DNA of 64,000 nucleotides from Escherichia coli (lineage in GTDB: Bacteria > Pseudomonadota > Gammaproteobacteria > Enterobacterales > Enterobacteriaceae), in the NCBI RefSeq assembly GCF_016026235.1, contig NZ_CP065613.1; one strand, 5' to 3'. A program made the position numbers and the translations under genes. The first letter of the stretch is position 1. The number at the start of each line of letters is the position of its first letter. Shown one piece after another: positions 39,938 to 57,283 of the stretch. The notes beneath the pieces are model-generated. The model ran no database searches, had not been told where the DNA came from, and saw nothing but the letters and a program-made list of their open reading frames with translations.

Positions 39938-41002
39938 ATGGAACATTTCGACGTGGCGATTATTGGCCTCGGCCCGGCAGGGTCGGCGTTGGCACGAAAG
40001 TTAGCCGGCAAAATGCAGGTGATCGCGCTGGATAAAAAGCACCAGCATGGTACTGAAGGTTTCAGCAAACCTTGTGGCGGTCTGCTGGCACCGGACGCGC
40101 AGCGATCTTTTATTCGCGATGGGCTGACGCTTCCTGTCGATGTGATCGCTAATCCGCAGATTTTCAGCGTCAAAACCGTCGACGTCGCCGCATCGCTCAC
40201 GCGTAACTACCAGCGAAGCTATATCAATATTAATCGCCATGCTTTCGACTTGTGGATGAAATCGCTGATCCCCGCCAGCGTTGAGGTTTATCACGACAGC
40301 CTGTGTCGAAAAATCTGGCGTGAGGATGATAAATGGCATGTCATTTTTCGTGCAGACGGTTGGGAGCAGCATATTACCGCCCGCTATCTGGTCGGTGCCG
40401 ATGGTGCCAACTCGATGGTGCGGCGACATCTCTACCCGGATCATCAAATCCGTAAATATGTCGCAATCCAGCAGTGGTTCGCAGAGAAACATCCGGTGCC
40501 GTTCTACTCCTGCATCTTTGATAATGCGATAACTGACTGTTACTCATGGAGTATCAGCAAAGACGGTTATTTTATCTTTGGCGGTGCCTATCCAATGAAA
40601 GACGGTCAGACGCGTTTCGCGACGCTGAAAGAGAAAATGAGCGCCTTTCAGTTCCAGTTTGGTAAGGCGGTGAAAAGCGAAAAATGCACGGTGCTGTTTC
40701 CCTCACGCTGGCAGGATTTTGTCTGCGGTAAGGACAACGCCTTTCTGATTGGTGAAGCGGCGGGATTTATCAGCGCCAGTTCGCTGGAGGGGATTAGCTA
40801 TGCGCTGGATAGCGCAGAGATTCTGCGTTCGGTGTTACTGAAGCAGCCGGAGAAGAGCAACGCCGCCTACTGGCGCGCCACCCGCAAACTGCGTTTAAAA
40901 CTCTTCGGTAAGATAGTAAAAAGCCGATGCCTGACCGCACCGGCTTTAAGAAAGTGGATTATGCGCAGTGGTGTGGCACATATTCCACAGTTGAAGGATT
41001 AG
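39938..41002 (+). CDS. cbrA: FAD-binding oxidoreductase-like protein (CreBC-regulated)
   Basis: 354 aa from [19 protein letters not shown] (Rossmann GxGxxG). Confidence 0.85.
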
Positions 41003-42291
41003 CCAACGCGCTTCACATCGCCCACCAGCAGGATATAAGAGAGCGCGCCAATCAACGCGACGGCGGAGATATAAACCAGTGCAGGTGCGAAACCGTAACC
41101 CTGCGCCAGGTACCCCACCACCAGCGGAACGGTGATGCCGCCCAGACCACCGGCGAAGTTAAATACGCCGCCGGTTAAACCAATCAGGCGCATCGGTGCC
41201 AGAGAAGAAACCAGCGACCAGGTAATCGAAGCAAAACCGTTACCGAAGAATGCCAGCGCCATCAGGCACATAATCATCATCGGATCGTTAGTGTAGTTAG
41301 CGCCCATAATGCAGGTGGAGATCAGCAAGCCGCAGATAATCGGCGTTTTACGCGCAAAGCCCAGTGAAAAGCCCTTACGTACCAGCAGATCCGCTACCCA
41401 GCCAGAGAGCAGGACGCCGACAAACGCCGCGAGGAATGGCACCGTGGTCATAAAGCCTGCTTTCAGCGCCGTGATTCCTTTTTCCTGGGTTAAATAGTTC
41501 GGGAACCAGGTTAAGAAAAACCACAGTGTAGAAGCCACCGCAAATTGCCCAAGATAAACGCCGATCAGTTTACGATGGAACACCAGTTTCCAGTCTTTGG
41601 CTGTTAACGGCTGACGCGCCTCTTTCTTCACCGGCGCATCACCATCCACCAGACCGCCGCCATCACGAATGTAATCCAGTTCAGCTTTGCTGATACCTTT
41701 GGTCAGGCGCGGCGGCTGATAAACCTTAAACCAAATCAGCGACCAGATAATGCCGATACCACCAGTGACAATGAACACCCAGTGCCAGCTCAACATCTCC
41801 TGAATCCAGATCAGCAGCGGAGTCAAAAACGCCAGACCGACAAACTGACCAGACGTATAAAAACCAACGGCGGAAGCGCGTTCATGTTCCGGGAACCAGC
41901 TGGTCACCATCCGGTTATTGGTCGGGAAAGCGGGCGCTTCGAAAATACCGGTTATCGCACGCAGACCAATTAATGACATTAATCCCGTGGCAAAGCCCTG
42001 GAATAAAGTCGCCACTGACCAACCAAATATCGCAATAAAATAAGTCACGCGAGAACCTACGCGATCTAAAAACCAACCGCCGGGGATCTGGCATAGCGTA
42101 TAAAGCCAGGCGAAGGCCGAAAATACATAGCCCATTTCCGCTTTCGTAATGCCGAACTCTTCCTGAATATGGGCGGAAGCCACGGCCAGGTTAGCGCGGT
42201 CAACATAACAAATGACCACCGTAATAAAGATCATCACCAGCGTCAGATAACGCCGACGCCCCGGCTTTGCTGCATTAACGGGAATATCCAT
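40999..42291 (-). CDS. dgoT: D-galactonate:H+ symporter (MFS)
   Basis: 430 aa from [16 protein letters not shown]... Confidence 0.9.
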
Positions 42292-42410
42292 AGCGAGCTT
42301 TCTCCAGATTTTGGGCATAGCGAAGCCGCTCACCATGCCCTGTAATTTACAGAGGGTTATATTTTTGTATTGCTGTTTTAGTGCCCGATGAGGGGCTTAC
42401 GTGGCAGGAA

Positions 42411-43559
42411 TTACCACTCTGCTACGCTGTTATCTTCATGACGCCAGAGCGGATTACGCCAGTCCGGGGCATTTTTACTGAACTCAATAACTTTAGCTTC
42501 GTCGATTTCCACACCTAAGCCCGGTTTCGTTAACGGTTTAAAGAAGCCGCCAACCATACTGAAGTCTTCTTTGTTTTTCACAAAGTCGAGTAACTCCGCG
42601 CCTTTGTTGTAATGAATGCCCATACTTTGTTCCTGAAGTACCGCGTTATAGGAAACAAAGTCGATATGCAGGCAAGCCGCCAGTGCAATCGGTCCGAGCG
42701 GACAGTGCGGCGCAAGGGTCACATCATAGGCTTCTGCCATTCCAGCAATTTTGTAGCATTCGGTAATACCGCCTGCATGGGAGAGATCCGGTTGCAGAAT
42801 CGAAATACCGCCTGCCTCCAGCACGCGTTTAAAATCGAAACGTGAGAACATGCGCTCACCCGCCGCCAGTGGAATATGCGTTTGTGCCGCCAATTTCGGG
42901 TAGTATTCGGCTTGTTCCGCCAGCACCGGCTCTTCAATAAACAGCGGGCGATACGGCTCCAGTTCTTTAATCAGCACTTTCGCCATTGGCGCGCTGACGC
43001 GACCGTGGAAATCAAGACCAAACTCAATCTGATTGCCAAAAGCTTCACGAATTTGTGCCACGGTGTTGACTGCCGCATCTACCGCGCGGGAGTTATCAAT
43101 TAGCCCCAGTTCTTCACAACCGTTCAGTTTGAAGGTATCGAAGCCGATTTCGCGCAGGGTTTTAATGCCGTCGATAACATCCGCCGGACGATCGCCGCCG
43201 ACCCAACTGTAGGCTTTAATTTTGTCGCGAACCAGGCCGCCCATCAGTTGCCAGACTGGCGCATTCAGCACTTTGCCTTTGATATCCCATAACGCCTGGT
43301 CGATCCCGGCGATGGCGCTCATCAGGATTGGACCGCCACGATAAAATCCGGCGCGATACATCACTTGCCATAAGTCGTTGATGCGCGAAGGATCCTGACC
43401 AATCAAATAGTCACCCAGCTCGTGAACTGCCGCTTCCACCGTACGGGCGCGGCCTTCAATCACGGGCTCGCCCCAACCGACCACGCCTTCATCGGTTTCA
43501 ATTTTCAGGAACATCCAGCGGGGAGGTAAACGATACGTGGTAATTTTGGTGATTTTCAT
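42411..43559 (-). CDS. dgoD: D-galactonate dehydratase (enolase superfamily)
   Basis: 382 aa; recognised as DgoD. Confidence 0.9.
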
Positions 43560-44173
43560 TGCACTGCCTCTCGATACGCCTTAACAAATGCTGCTGCCTG
43601 CTGCGCGGTGCGTTCTACGGACTGCCCGGCGCGATAGAGATCGCTGCCTAAGCCCGCCCCAGCACAACCTGCGTCTATCCACTGCGCCAGGTTTTCTGGC
43701 GTCACGCCGCCAACGGCAAAGACTGCGATGTCCGATGGCAATACCGCTTTTAACGCTTTGATGTATTGCGGACCAAAAGCCGATGACGGAAATATTTTCA
43801 GCGCCTGCGCGCCCGCTTCGAGCGCGGTAAAGGCTTCGGTCGCCGTCGCGCAGCCGGGGCAGACGGTCATGCCGTAGCCCACCGCACGGCGGATCACTTC
43901 ACTATGGATATTGGGCGTAACGATGAGCTGACAGCCCATCCTGGCGAGCGCATCGACCTGTTCAGGTTTCAGTACCGTACCTGCGCCAATCAACGCCTTG
44001 TCGCCATACGCATCAACGATGGCGGGAATGCTTTGCTCCCATTGTGGGGAATTCAGCGGGATTTCAACCGCGTCGAACCCGGCGTCAATCACCGCGCCAA
44101 CATGCGCCAGCGCCTCGTCGGGCTTAATGCCGCGCAAAATGGCGATCAGCGGAAGTTTAGTTTGCCACTGCAT
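43556..44173 (-). CDS. dgoA: 2-dehydro-3-deoxy-6-phosphogalactonate aldolase
   Basis: 205 aa; overlaps dgoD by 4 nt. Confidence 0.9.
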
Positions 44174-45035
44174 GAGCGATGCTCCTTATACCAGCCTGAA
44201 ATGCCGTGTCGCCCGCCACCGCCGTCACGTCGCAACCCATCGCCTGAAAGGCTTGCTGGTAGCGCGCGGTCAGCGATGTTCCGGCGACAAGGGTGATGGC
44301 GTGTTGATGGGTCACATAGTCGCGCATACTGGCAACCTCTGCGCCAATCAACAAACCAGAGAGAAATTCGCTGACCTGTTCGCGGGGAAGTGTTCCCAGC
44401 ACATGCGAGGCGCGAACTTCAAAAAGCTGCGGCAATATGGCGGGCGCATTAAGGCCGCGCTCAAGGCCAGCCGCGAAGGCATCGGCAGAGTTTTCCTGCG
44501 GCGGCAAACCTGCGCCAATCAATGAGTGATTTAACAGTAAATGATGTAATTCACCGGTCATCACGGTGCGAAAATCGTTGATTTGCTGGCTATCGGCCTG
44601 CACCCATTTGCAATGCGTACCGGGCATAACATAAAGAGAGGAAGGAGCCAGAGCTCGCGCGCCGATCAATTGTGTTTCTTCGCCGCGCATCACATTGTGG
44701 TTATCGTCATGAGAGACGCATAATCCGGGAATAATCCAGATATTGTCGCCAACAGACGTTAATTGTTCGCCAATAGACGAAAAACGGGCAGGAACAGATA
44801 AATACGGAGCAACTTTCCAGCCGACATTGCTGCCGACCATTCCTGCCATCACCACTGGCGTATTTTCTTCACGCCAGTCGGTCGTGACTTCTGCTAACAC
44901 CGCAGCCGGAGATTTTCCGTTCAGGCGCGTGACGCCTGCTTCTGATTGCCTGCTCTCCAGGCAGTGGTCGCCCTGATAAAGCCAGGCGCGCAGATTGGTC
45001 GATCCCCAGTCAATTGCGATGTAGCGAGCTGTCAT
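44157..45035 (-). CDS. dgoK: 2-dehydro-3-deoxygalactonokinase
   Basis: 292 aa; overlaps dgoA by 17 nt and dgoR by 4 nt. Confidence 0.9.
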   Translation of the reverse strand: MTARYIAIDWGSTNLRAWLYQGDHCLESRQSEAGVTRLNGKSPAAVLAEVTTDWREENTPVVMAGMVGSNVGWKVAPYLSVPARFSSIGEQLTSVGDNIWIIPGLCVSHDDNHNVMRGEETQLIGARALAPSSLYVMPGTHCKWVQADSQQINDFRTVMTGELHHLLLNHSLIGAGLPPQENSADAFAAGLERGLNAPAILPQLFEVRASHVLGTLPREQVSEFLSGLLIGAEVASMRDYVTHQHAITLVAGTSLTARYQQAFQAMGCDVTAVAGDTAFQAGIRSIAHAVAN

Positions 45036-45721
45036 GTGATTTCCTTTAACCTTCGTGTCGAGCTGGCGATCATGGTAAGCGCCGCCTGCTCTGCCGCATC
45101 GCCGTCCTGATGCCGTATTGCATCGAACAGCGCCTTATGTTCCTGGAGCGTTTGCGGCATGTTGGCCTCATCGCCCATCCAGGTTCGTTCAAAAACCGCC
45201 CGCTGCAACGAACTGATCGCAATGCTAAGTTGCTGTAACACCGGGTTATGTACCGACTGCAGCACCGCCTCGTGGTAGCGAATATCCGCTTCGTTAAACG
45301 CTTCGCGGTCCTGATTGTTGGCAATCATCTCGTTCAGCGCCGATTCAATCTGCGCCAGATCGCTGGAAGTCGCGCGCTCTGCTGCCCAACGGGCAATCGC
45401 CGGTTCCACCAGATTTCGCACTTCGCTCATGGCACTGATAAGCCGTGGGTCGTAGTCGTTTTCCAACACCCATTGCAGTACGTCAGTGTCGAGGTAATTC
45501 CACTGGTTACGCGGTGCCACAAACGCCCCGCGATAACGTTTCATTTCAATCAGCCGCTTCGCCATCAGCGAACGGAACACCTCACGGATGATGTTGCGCG
45601 AGGTTGCAAACTCTTCACAGAGCTCCGCCTCAGCCGGAAGTGGCGAGCCAGGTACGTATTTGCCGTGAACGATCTGTTTACCCAGCGTAATGACAATGCG
45701 ATCGGTTTTATTGAGAGTCAT
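45032..45721 (-). CDS. dgoR: GntR/FadR-family repressor of the dgo operon
   Basis: 229 aa with N-terminal GntR HTH. Confidence 0.9.
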   Translation of the reverse strand: MTLNKTDRIVITLGKQIVHGKYVPGSPLPAEAELCEEFATSRNIIREVFRSLMAKRLIEMKRYRGAFVAPRNQWNYLDTDVLQWVLENDYDPRLISAMSEVRNLVEPAIARWAAERATSSDLAQIESALNEMIANNQDREAFNEADIRYHEAVLQSVHNPVLQQLSIAISSLQRAVFERTWMGDEANMPQTLQEHKALFDAIRHQDGDAAEQAALTMIASSTRRLKEIT

Positions 45722-45786
45722 GGAGAGTCCTTGTGCTCTGTATGTTCTTCTCTACTTTACCCCGATCGATGCATAACGCGGCAACT

Positions 45787-45861
45787 TTGTAGTACCAGCG
45801 TGATGACGTTCGCGTTTGCCGTGTGCGTAATGTAGTACAAACTTATATTGTTGTACTACAA
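45787..45861. promoter_or_regulatory. dgo promoter/operator region with three TGTA-N-TACA-type motifs
   Basis: TTGTAGTACCA (45787-45797), ATGTAGTACAA (45830-45840), TTGTACTACAA (45850-45861); the last two cores are reverse complements of each other. Confidence 0.6.
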
Positions 45862-45998
45862 TTTAGATCACAAAAAGAACAATGCATAAAAAAATGACAT
45901 GCGTCGGGCAGAAATCTGAAAAGGGATATCAGGCGCTAAACAGGAGGGAAAGAAGAGTATGCTTTCAACGGCTTAGCTACTCGTTTAAAGGATTAATC

Positions 45999-46655
45999 AT
46001 GAAGTTGAATTTTAAGGGATTTTTTAAGGCTGCCGGTTTATTCCCACTGGCGCTGATGCTTTCAGGCTGTATCTCGTATGCTCTGGTTTCCCATACCGCA
46101 AAGGGTAGTTCAGGAAAGTATCAATCGCAGTCAGACACCATCACTGGGCTATCGCAGGCAAAAGATAGTAATGGAACAAAAGGCTATGTTTTTGTAGGGG
46201 AATCGCTGGATTACCTTATCACTGATGGTGCCGATGACATCGTTAAGATGCTCAATGATCCAGCACTTAACCGGCACAATATTCAGGTTGCCGATGACGC
46301 AAGATTTGTTTTAAATGCGGGGAAAAAGAAATTTACCGGCACAATATCGCTTTACTACTACTGGAATAACGAAGAAGAAAAGGCACTGGCAACGCATTAT
46401 GGTTTTGCCTGTGGTGTTCAACACTGTACCAGGTCACTGGAAAACCTAAAAGGCACAATCCATGAGAAAAATAAAAACATGGATTACTCAAAGGTGATGG
46501 CGTTCTACCATCCATTTAAAGTGCGATTTTATGAATACTATTCACCCAGAGGCATTCCGGATGGTGTTTCCGCAGCATTACTGCCAGTGACTGTTACGCT
46601 GGACATCATTACTGCACCGCTGCAATTTCTGGTTGTATATGCAGTAAACCAATAA
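45999..46655 (+). CDS. yidX: putative lipoprotein of unknown function
   Basis: 218 aa from [24 protein letters not shown] (lipobox). Confidence 0.75.
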
Positions 46656-55636: not shown

Positions 55637-57283
55637 ATGGATTCGCAACGCAATCTTTTAGTCATCGCTTTGCTGTTCGTGTCTTTCATGATCTGGCAAG
55701 CCTGGGAGCAGGATAAAAACCCGCAACCTCAGGCCCAACAGACCACGCAGACAACGACCACCGCAGCGGGTAGCGCCGCCGACCAGGGCGTACCGGCCAG
55801 TGGCCAGGGGAAACTGATCTCGGTTAAGACCGACGTGCTTGATCTGACCATCAACACCCGTGGTGGTGATGTTGAGCAAGCTCTGCTGCCTGCTTACCCG
55901 AAAGAGCTGAACTCTACCCAGCCGTTCCAGCTGCTGGAAACTTCACCGCAGTTTATTTATCAGGCACAGAGCGGTCTGACCGGTCGTGATGGCCCGGATA
56001 ACCCGGCTAACGGCCCGCGTCCGCTGTATAACGTTGAAAAAGACGCTTATGTGCTGGCTGAAGGTCAAAACGAACTGCAGGTGCCGATGACGTATACCGA
56101 CGCGGCAGGCAACACGTTTACCAAAACGTTTGTCCTGAAACGTGGTGATTACGCTGTCAACGTCAACTACAACGTGCAGAACGCTGGCGAGAAACCGCTG
56201 GAAATCTCCACCTTTGGTCAGTTGAAGCAATCCATCACTCTGCCACCGCATCTCGATACCGGAAGCAGCAACTTCGCACTGCACACCTTCCGCGGCGCGG
56301 CGTACTCCACGCCTGACGAGAAGTACGAGAAATACAAGTTCGATACCATTGCCGATAACGAAAACCTGAACATCTCTTCGAAAGGTGGTTGGGTGGCAAT
56401 GCTGCAACAGTATTTCGCGACGGCGTGGATCCCGCATAACGACGGTACCAACAACTTCTATACCGCTAATCTGGGTAACGGCATCGCCGCTATCGGCTAT
56501 AAATCTCAGCCGGTACTGGTTCAGCCTGGTCAGACTGGCGCGATGAACAGCACCCTGTGGGTTGGCCCGGAAATCCAGGACAAAATGGCAGCTGTTGCTC
56601 CGCACCTGGATCTGACCGTTGATTACGGTTGGTTGTGGTTCATCTCTCAGCCGCTGTTCAAACTGCTGAAATGGATCCATAGCTTTGTGGGTAACTGGGG
56701 CTTCTCCATTATCATCATCACCTTTATCGTTCGTGGCATCATGTACCCGCTGACCAAAGCGCAGTACACCTCCATGGCGAAGATGCGTATGCTGCAGCCG
56801 AAGATTCAGGCAATGCGTGAGCGTCTGGGCGATGACAAACAGCGTATCAGCCAGGAAATGATGGCGCTGTACAAAGCTGAGAAGGTTAACCCGCTGGGCG
56901 GCTGCTTCCCGCTGCTGATCCAGATGCCAATCTTCCTGGCGTTGTACTACATGCTGATGGGTTCCGTTGAACTGCGTCAGGCACCGTTTGCACTGTGGAT
57001 CCACGACCTGTCGGCACAGGACCCGTACTACATCCTGCCGATCCTGATGGGCGTAACGATGTTCTTCATTCAGAAGATGTCGCCGACCACAGTGACCGAC
57101 CCGATGCAGCAGAAGATCATGACCTTTATGCCGGTCATCTTCACCGTGTTCTTCCTGTGGTTCCCGTCAGGTCTGGTGCTGTACTATATCGTCAGCAACC
57201 TGGTAACCATTATTCAGCAGCAGCTGATTTACCGTGGTCTGGAAAAACGTGGCCTGCATAGCCGCGAGAAGAAAAAATCCTGA
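55637..57283 (+). CDS. yidC: membrane protein insertase YidC
   Basis: 548 aa. Confidence 0.95.

Follow-up and report, generated by a model that had tools for sequence, protein, structure and literature searches.

The window analysed here, a 64,000-nt stretch of Escherichia coli DNA (contig NZ_CP065613.1), carries the genes of the dgo operon on its minus strand: dgoR (45032-45721), dgoK (44157-45035), dgoA (43556-44173), dgoD (42411-43559) and dgoT (40999-42291). The window and K-12 MG1655 are colinear over 9 kb, and the dgoD-dgoT spacer is identical in the two. An earlier note on this DNA had pointed out a palindrome in the spacer, whose length it gave as 119 nt. This length is right when dgoT begins at the curated K-12 start codon (42289-42291, minus strand; NP_418146.4), which yields a product of 430 aa; the homologues mostly have 430-431 aa. 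In the RefSeq/PGAP annotation dgoT starts at an upstream in-frame ATG (42334-42336, minus strand) and encodes 445 aa. With this start (42336) the gap is 74 nt and the palindrome stands 3 nt ahead of the start codon.

The palindrome was found where the earlier note had placed it. On the plus strand it reads CTGTAATTTACAG (42340-42352), with two 6-nt arms that form a perfect inverted repeat around a single central base. The range of 42338-42354 given before consists of this core plus two flanking positions on each side, which add a C-G and a U·G pair to the stem in the mRNA (minus strand; CUCUGUAAAUUACAGGG). In the mRNA the core (CUGUAA-A-UUACAG, 42340-42352) is the apical part of a stem-loop of the dgoT leader, termed hp1, whose extended form CUCUGUA / UACAGGG (42338-42354, minus strand) comprises 7 bp including one U·G. 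By chance expectation the palindrome is nothing unusual: the window has 22 perfect 6+6 repeats separated by 1 nt (15.6 expected), the number rises to 246 if gaps of 0-10 nt are allowed, and 18% of shuffled 119-nt spacers contain a perfect 6+6 repeat.

Directly upstream of dgoT lies a conserved leader block of ~57 nt (ACCCUCUG ... GGAGA, 42301-42357, minus strand). In 13 Enterobacteriaceae genera, among them Kosakonia, Salmonella, Pluralibacter, Phytobacter, Cedecea, Scandinavium and Lelliottia, the block is ~90% identical to that of E. coli. The corresponding value for the four-fold degenerate sites of dgoT is ~49%, indicating strong purifying selection on the block at the nucleotide level. 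Conservation of this noncoding sequence exceeds the neutral rate, as expected of a cis-regulatory structured mRNA leader. No conserved small ORF was found in the leader on either strand, because variation in loop length shifts the frames. The other half of the spacer, on the 5' side (42358-42410, minus strand), is predicted to fold into a small GCCC/GGGC hairpin (42383-42396) and contains an A-rich tract. This half cannot be aligned between genera. The whole spacer measures 109-307 nt across relatives, and several related lineages have REP-like and ERIC-like insertions in it.

Sequences of the junction were collected from a species-representative genome collection, from contigs encoding DgoT homologues and from one metagenome scan, which was anchored on the ribosome-binding region of non-E. 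coli relatives. The matches listed in the genome-contig scan did not include the closest relatives of E. coli. In the resulting alignment (A1, 54 distinct sequences) the mean column identity was 86%; 39 of the rows had been fetched with a pattern extending over the positions equivalent to 42301-42315, therefore the full set overstates how well the RBS hairpin and the last 3 bp of the second hairpin (hp2, see below) are conserved, and for these columns the unbiased rows are the 15 genome-derived ones only. The consensus pattern is ACCCUCUGU-[variable]-AC(A/C)GGGCAUGGUG-[variable]-CGCUAUGCCC-AAAAUCUGGAGA.

When the 80-nt leader was used as query against 5426 E. coli genomes (blastn, distant mode), matches were obtained at the dgoT locus only. 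Across 5019 E. coli genomes the leader occurred in one place per genome (median), and this place was always dgoT. The single-copy state of the leader in E. coli led us to reject a REP/BIME or ERIC repeat. A covariance model built from A1 (R1) gave one match in the window. Searches with R1 found no homologue in the Pantoea, Erwinia, Yersinia, Hafnia, Rahnella, Pectobacterium, Tatumella and Budvicia loci searched, nor in the loci more distant than these genera. From these comparisons the leader appears to be confined to Enterobacteriaceae proper. The leaders of Pantoea-type dgoT genes are unalignable with it, yet they have a stable 14-bp hairpin with 2 covarying pairs upstream of the Shine-Dalgarno (SD) sequence. 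A scan of 40500-46500 on both strands against Rfam release 15 produced no match at E <= 1. The dgoT leader is previously undescribed.

The structural core of the leader, well supported by the alignment, is the hairpin located directly 3' of the palindrome. This hairpin, hp2 (GGGCAUGGUGAG-CGGC-UUCGCUAUGCCC, 42313-42340, minus strand), has 12 contiguous bp and a folding energy of -17.8 kcal/mol (z -4.1), equalled by none of 200 shuffles. In each of five sequence contexts its pairing probability lay within 0.71-0.93. Between genera the stem is kept, whereas the loop is free to vary. Compensatory double changes, the mark of RNA-type covariation, were observed at two pairs, U-A to C-G in Pluralibacter gergoviae and A-U to C-G in isolate RIT691, and they were accompanied by many one-sided changes between G·U and G-C or A-U. 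The number of pairs with double changes was matched by at most one of 500 column shuffles, and the covariation score by none of 500. One natural variant counts against the functional role proposed below for hp2: in the E. coli ST131 strain JJ2434 a G-to-U change at 42339 breaks an hp2 pair, and a second change (U to A at 42306) turns CUGGAG into CAGGAG.

The hairpin is specific to the mRNA strand, as indicated by two G·U pairs that are themselves conserved. The antisense strand of hp2 forms an interrupted stem of -12.4 kcal/mol, and the covariance model scores 7.9 bits on the antisense strand vs 87 bits on the sense strand. Compensatory pairing specific to the mRNA strand was thus found for hp2 and not for hp1. 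Conservation of the stems of the leader, fixed G·U pairs included, goes far beyond what base pairing demands, which hints at a trans-acting partner or some further constraint. Both loops vary freely (that of hp1 also in length) and it is the stems that are conserved; a riboswitch was rejected for this reason. A sigma-54 promoter in the hp2 loop was also rejected, because the bases in question are unconserved in the alignment.

The palindrome behaves differently from hp2. The earlier note had proposed to look at its conservation across Enterobacteriaceae: the outer letters are fixed, but the full repeat CTGTAA-N-TTACAG is intact in 27 of the 54 distinct leaders (9 of the 15 genome-derived ones), the other 27 having lost the inner TAA/TTA. 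The sequence of the centre is variable, and among relatives CUGU and ACAG stand 3, 4, 5 or 6 nt apart. Such a loop length of 3-6 nt is the behaviour of an RNA loop and unlike that of a protein site. In 13 of 54 leaders the right arm reads ACCG, an A-to-C change that breaks hp1 pair 19-30, and in 7 of 54 pair 22-27 is A·A. No compensatory change in hp1 was detected among the 54 aligned sequences; all changes in its stem disrupt pairs.

Folding gave a similar picture of hp1. Taken alone, the 7-bp stem has an energy of -6.1 kcal/mol (z -2.3). Its three outer pairs require the GGG at 42338-42340, which also forms the base of hp2, and within the leader, folding into full hp1 costs 4.5 kcal/mol relative to the alternative conformer. 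The contribution of the inner 4-bp stem in context is about -0.2 kcal/mol, and the pairing probability of hp1 in E. coli ranges between 0.17 and 0.57, depending on the amount of flank folded. The palindrome is a marginal first stem-loop and the least constrained helix of the dgoT leader. It probably contributes little and is not important in itself.

With moderate confidence we interpret the palindrome as hp1 of a conserved, structured dgoT leader of ~70 nt, which is part of the dgoRKADT mRNA of Enterobacteriaceae and would act in cis on the translation or stability of dgoT. The effect on dgoT expression and its route are put forward as a model. The functional core would be hp2 together with the ribosome-binding region, and the leader would act in cis, as RNA, on the mRNA strand of the polycistronic transcript. 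It would set translation initiation and/or stability of dgoT independently of the variable upstream spacer; as a consequence, the amount of DgoT made could differ from that of the catabolic enzymes and be lower. A possible route is protection of a processed dgoT mRNA by a 5' hairpin located downstream of an A/U-rich linker; insulation or presentation of the RBS and partial occlusion of the SD are other possible routes. The region consists of a variable REP-containing segment, an A/U-rich single-stranded tract, a stable hairpin and the RBS. Such a layout is expected where RNase E cuts in the A/U-rich tract and the product mRNA is protected by its 5' hairpin. The suggestion of the earlier note that the palindrome could be a processing or stability element is plausible for the larger leader, but not for the palindrome itself, its least constrained helix.

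The properties of hp1 have to be weighed also against the possibility that its palindromic symmetry is incidental, that the flanks CCCUCUG and CAGGG are kept for another reason (a trans factor or pairing elsewhere), and that a hairpin at 42338-42354 is without importance. Palindromes as large as this one are frequent in the window. Once hp2 has formed, hp1 adds the -0.2 kcal/mol mentioned above at a probability of 0.17-0.57, the variation in its stem is disruptive throughout (including the A-to-C change in 13 of 54), and the RNAalifold consensus structure does not contain it. These observations are what incidental symmetry would predict; the persistence of CUGU facing ACAG across a loop of changing length and sequence is not. 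Moreover, the energy and z-score of the isolated 7-bp hp1 imply that hp1 could fold during transcription, ahead of synthesis of the 3' arm of hp2. We regard incidental symmetry as possible, though rather unlikely.

A different role for the same letters follows from the surroundings of the SD sequence. The dgoT SD GGAG (42302-42305, minus strand) is paired by RNAalifold with an invariant CUCU (42351-42354) that belongs to the 5' arm of the palindrome. The leader could therefore be a conformational switch: in one state the anti-SD CUCU would pair with GGAG across hp2 and close the RBS, and in the other hp1 would sequester the anti-SD by pairing it with CAGGG, leaving the RBS open. Since hp1 and hp2 share one GGG, the balance between the states could depend on a trans factor, on temperature or on co-transcriptional folding. 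The consensus structure consists of hp2 and the CUCU:GGAG helix, which is paired in all 54 sequences; the closed and open conformers of E. coli are near equal in energy (-20.2 and -19.5 kcal/mol); and for the anti-SD:SD helix, probabilities of up to 0.36 were obtained in some E. coli contexts and of up to 0.49 in Kosakonia. The leaders share an invariant CCC...GGG...CCC triad, and CCCU...GGGG...GCCY was present in three of four Pantoea-type leaders that are otherwise different. However, the anti-SD:SD helix is short (4-5 bp, of which one or two are G·U), and its probability was at most 0.10 in 14 of the 16 sequences folded (single-sequence range 0.00-0.49). It shows no covariation, because all eight positions are invariant, and no effector is known.

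The local structure of the SD adds to these difficulties. In most genera a third hairpin, AUCUG-GAGA-CAGAU, holds most of the SD in its loop with the first G paired, and in Cedecea neteri this hairpin covaries (UUUUG-GAGA-CGAAA), which also speaks for a structured leader. In E. coli the segment of the third hairpin is replaced. Where the local SD hairpin is present, it beats the anti-SD:SD helix by ~4.5 kcal/mol. On balance we think that a switch of this type is improbable. The same elements can be combined into a switch RNA in which CCCUCUG alternates between pairing with CAGGG and with the SD, hp2 competes for the GGG, and a trans partner (an sRNA such as Spot 42, or a protein) reads the stems and the fixed G·U pairs, so that transporter synthesis would be uncoupled from the catabolic enzymes; this combination, too, is something we would not expect to be true.

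Published expression data relate to the leader in several ways. On arrays of S. Enteritidis dgoRKAD were induced 22-34-fold vs 11-14-fold for dgoT, a roughly 2-fold weaker response that fits a step-down, though one in array fold-change rather than absolute level and not assignable to the dgoT leader (PMC5428311). The change of dgoT was non-significant at the first time point and came later than that of dgoRKAD (PMC5428311). Together with the partial conservation of the palindrome, these data give a mixed answer to the refuting condition set by the earlier note. In S. Typhimurium LT2 a dgoT::MudK fusion was silent unless dgoR was deleted (PMC3573128), indicating that dgoT is expressed from the operon promoter through the leader. 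A Rho-sensitive region with a peak at 3872004 on the minus strand was described for E. coli K-12 grown in LB; upon bicyclomycin treatment, downstream reads rose from 40 to 482 and upstream reads from 37 to 80 (PMC7815308 supplementary file 2). This peak corresponds to 42565 in the window, inside dgoD and ~215 nt upstream of the palindrome, and we make no connection between it and the leader. Term-seq tables contained no entry for dgoT; the published maps were made under conditions in which the operon is repressed.

The silence of the LT2 fusion in the presence of dgoR (PMC3573128) also speaks against an internal dgoT promoter, in which the A/T-rich centre of the palindrome would serve as -10 element and transcripts would start from hp2. 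The centre is A/T-rich and always begins with TA, one relative even reading TATAAT; there is an A/T-rich tract upstream of the palindrome, and the Rho-sensitive region was reported nearby (PMC7815308 supplementary file 2). But the final base of the -10-like hexamer is unconserved, and so is the -35 position, while the would-be spacer CCCTCTG is invariant, which is the reverse of promoter behaviour. A sigma-70 scan of 41900-42800 returned zero promoter-like sites; conserved -35 and -10 elements at a spacing of 16-18 nt are not present. The part of the Cappable-seq table examined contains no spacer coordinates, the operon being repressed there. An internal promoter is thus very unlikely.

No stronger is the case for a target of the sRNA Spot 42, by which the transporter would be repressed with glucose. 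Spot 42 represses the uptake and catabolism of secondary carbon sources, and it acts inside the gal operon. Perfect complementarity to the spf seed UACAGAGG extends over the 8 nt of the invariant CCUCUGUA (42347-42354), and the target letters are invariant in 50 of 54 leaders. An equal 8-mer seed match was found, however, at 3 of the 57 ORF starts in the window, the duplex energy of -17.5 kcal/mol was reached by 15% of shuffles, and the site is situated ~45 nt upstream of the SD. The match therefore neither exceeds chance nor lies near the RBS. A literature search found no paper tying Spot 42 to dgo, or dgoT to sRNAs. We give this explanation very little weight. A CsrA site was rejected on the alignment; UACAGGGC resembles the CsrA consensus but has no GGA.

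The earlier note had also offered an internal operator as an explanation, and this was not borne out. The spacing between CTGT and ACAG is variable (3-6 nt) and the inner TAA/TTA is not kept; variable spacing in the relatives is incompatible with a dimeric DNA-binding site. The candidate that comes to mind is DgoR, whose operators in the dgoR promoter have the sequence TTGTA(G/C)TACAA with a 1-nt centre (PMC12288454). If DgoR, or some other transcription factor that binds as a dimer, recognised the palindrome, the operon would be controlled at a second, internal point. It has the inverted TGTA/TACA half-site letters of the DgoR (GntR/FadR) repeats IR1 and IR2 (window ~45831-45862) and lies in the same operon. 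The spacer repeat, however, is TGTA-N3-TACA, with a centre of 3 nt rather than 1 and no match to T.GT-N3-AC.A; it does not lie at a promoter; its right half-site is ACCG in 13 of 54; and its inner bases and spacing vary between genera. In the window TGTA-N-TACA occurs at 45831 and 45852 (dgoR promoter) and at 56943 (unrelated), and is absent from the dgoD-dgoT spacer. Neither the motif nor the conserved spacing of a DgoR or other FadR-type GntR operator was thus found, and we consider an operator extremely improbable.

Two further statements of the earlier note concerned LexA and termination. Its remark that the palindrome is not a LexA box was correct: the arms CTGT ... ACAG are those of the SOS box (CTGT-N8-ACAG), but the spacing is N5 here and N3-N6 in the 54 relatives, never N8. 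Its suggestion of a partial terminator, on the other hand, failed. The stem of hp1 is AU-rich, weak and without a U-tract, hp2 is followed by AAAAUCUGG and likewise has no U-tract, and a scan for intrinsic terminators found no site in the spacer (42292-42410). A terminator on the opposite strand (hp1/hp2 followed by a U-rich stretch, plus strand) was rejected, since the G·U pairs point to folding of the sense strand and a convergent gene is missing in most relatives.

Equally hard to believe is that the 445-aa start at 42336 is real, the palindrome being its ribosome-binding region and hp2 coding sequence, although PGAP annotates this start in E. coli, where the frame is open, and the 445-aa representative belongs to a cluster of 14,601 member sequences. 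In P. gergoviae the codon is ACG instead of ATG and in Enterobacteriaceae bacterium 89 it is ATA, and in at least six genera it is 43-44 nt from the true start and hence out of frame; the residues of the extension (SGF, RRL, ARI, PGR and others) are not conserved; the ATG is buried in the hp2 stem without a properly spaced SD; and curated K-12 DgoT and most homologues have 430-431 aa. Neither the start nor the frame is conserved as in a coding N-terminal extension, and comparison of the relatives suggests that the upstream ATG is probably not a real start.

The structured leader that we favour can be compared with several known systems. In the malE-malF region REP hairpins act as intercistronic stem-loops giving differential expression within an operon; REP is a multi-copy element and shields the upstream mRNA from 3' exonucleases. 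The dgo operon is similar in that hairpins in an untranslated gap precede the gene of a membrane component at the end of a sugar operon, and in the modest step-down of the distal gene reported in Salmonella (PMC5428311). Unlike the malE-malF REP elements, the dgoT leader is single-copy, lies directly next to the downstream RBS and has been kept as one unique sequence. The 5' UTR of ompA contains a 5'-terminal stabilising hairpin, and glmU-glmS is an example of intercistronic processing by RNase E. The succession of A/U-rich single-stranded tract, stable hairpin and RBS in the dgoT leader is reminiscent of these systems and could yield a protected processed mRNA. Unlike for glmU-glmS, we know of no activating sRNA such as GlmZ for the dgoT leader. 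The leader also shares with SD-sequestering leaders and RNA thermometers the ability of CUCU to pair with the SD GGAG across a hairpin, with an alternative pairing that could release it; it differs from them in the short helix, its low probability in most species and the lack of covariation.

These results bear on the annotation of the operon and on its regulation. RefSeq genomes of E. coli, by the thousand, start dgoT 15 codons early, within hp2. The use of D-galactonate bears on gut colonisation by E. coli and on Salmonella virulence: evolution experiments in the mouse gut are the main setting in which inactivating dgoR mutations were recovered, and in pigs DgoT acts as a virulence determinant (PMC12288454). 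Regulation of dgo has so far been described only at the DgoR-controlled promoter. A conserved leader RNA would add a post-transcriptional layer, setting the ratio of transporter to enzymes.

The E. coli leader of dgoT contains the octamer UCGCUAUG twice on the minus strand. One copy (42316-42323) lies in the 3' arm of hp2, the 12-bp hairpin at the core of the leader, and the other (42289-42296) ends in the dgoT start codon. The repeated octamer allows the 5' arm of hp2 to pair alternatively with the start-codon region, the computed probability of this pairing ranging from 0.01 to 0.24 with the sequence context. This duplication is specific to E. coli; in the relatives GGAGACAGAUUGCG is found in place of the octamer.

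Variation of the leader within E. coli was also scored. With an 80-nt leader query, 668 of 5023 E. coli records differed from the window at 1-4 positions. The lineage of the ST131 strain JJ2434 carries two changes: G to U at 42339, which affects the shared GGG and breaks one pair of hp2, and U to A at 42306, which turns the Shine-Dalgarno sequence into AGGAG. The dgoD-dgoT junction itself had no match in 407 of the 5426 complete E. coli genomes and was present in two or three copies in a few genomes; four copies were plasmid-borne.

The four Pantoea-type leaders (loci L082, L087, L088 and L090, at approximately 1444-1480) form a different, bipartite hairpin of 14 bp, whose 3' end is located about 10 nt upstream of the Shine-Dalgarno sequence. 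Three of the sequences have UUUGCCG/CGGCAAA as the outer stem, and the fourth has UUUGUAG/CUACAAA. Upstream, three of the four leaders keep ACCCU, like the E. coli type (GCCCU in the remaining one).

Within the dgoD-dgoT spacer, repeat insertion has a hotspot in the 5' half. Insertions were found in the compared loci L005 (3650-3800), L007 (3650-3820), L018 (3650-3800) and L082 (1194-1330), and directly after dgoD in L008, L009, L084 and L086. ERIC-like elements occur in the spacers of Phytobacter, Pluralibacter UBA7423, Rahnella and Pantoea, and agree with the sequences of the primers ERIC1R and ERIC2. Several Enterobacteriaceae have REP-like hairpins (GTAGGCCCGG...CCGGGCAA) in the spacer. 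In E. coli only a small GCCC/GGGC hairpin (42383-42396) is retained in this half.

A Rho termination region detected in LB lies inside dgoD (K-12 position 3872004, minus strand, corresponding to approximately 42565 in the window), and a second one in dgoK (K-12 3873894) (Adams et al. 2021, PMC7815308, supplementary file 2). At the dgoD region 37 upstream and 40 downstream reads were reported without bicyclomycin, and 80 and 482, respectively, with the drug (Rho score 5.6; PMC7815308). This downstream excess is greater than expected from read-through alone.

Upstream of dgoR (45831-45862, minus strand) lie both of the operator repeats published for DgoR, TTGTAGTACAA and TTGTACTACAT; a third sequence resembling them, GGTACTACAAAG, follows about 40 nt downstream. 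At the other end, dgoT converges with cbrA (39938-41002, plus strand, the position corresponding to the K-12 annotation), and the two genes overlap by 4 nt at their stop codons (40999-41002). Most other genera have, in place of the convergent cbrA, a DUF3748 (yidR-like) gene that lies after dgoT and in the same orientation.

In RefSeq/PGAP annotation, for example that of JJ2434, E. coli dgoT encodes 445 amino acids and starts at an ATG within the hp2 stem (42334-42336, minus strand). The product is 430-431 amino acids long in the curated K-12 entry and in most homologues. In many genera the upstream ATG is either missing or not in frame with dgoT, and this comparison indicates that the 445-amino-acid start is an annotation error carried into thousands of genomes.
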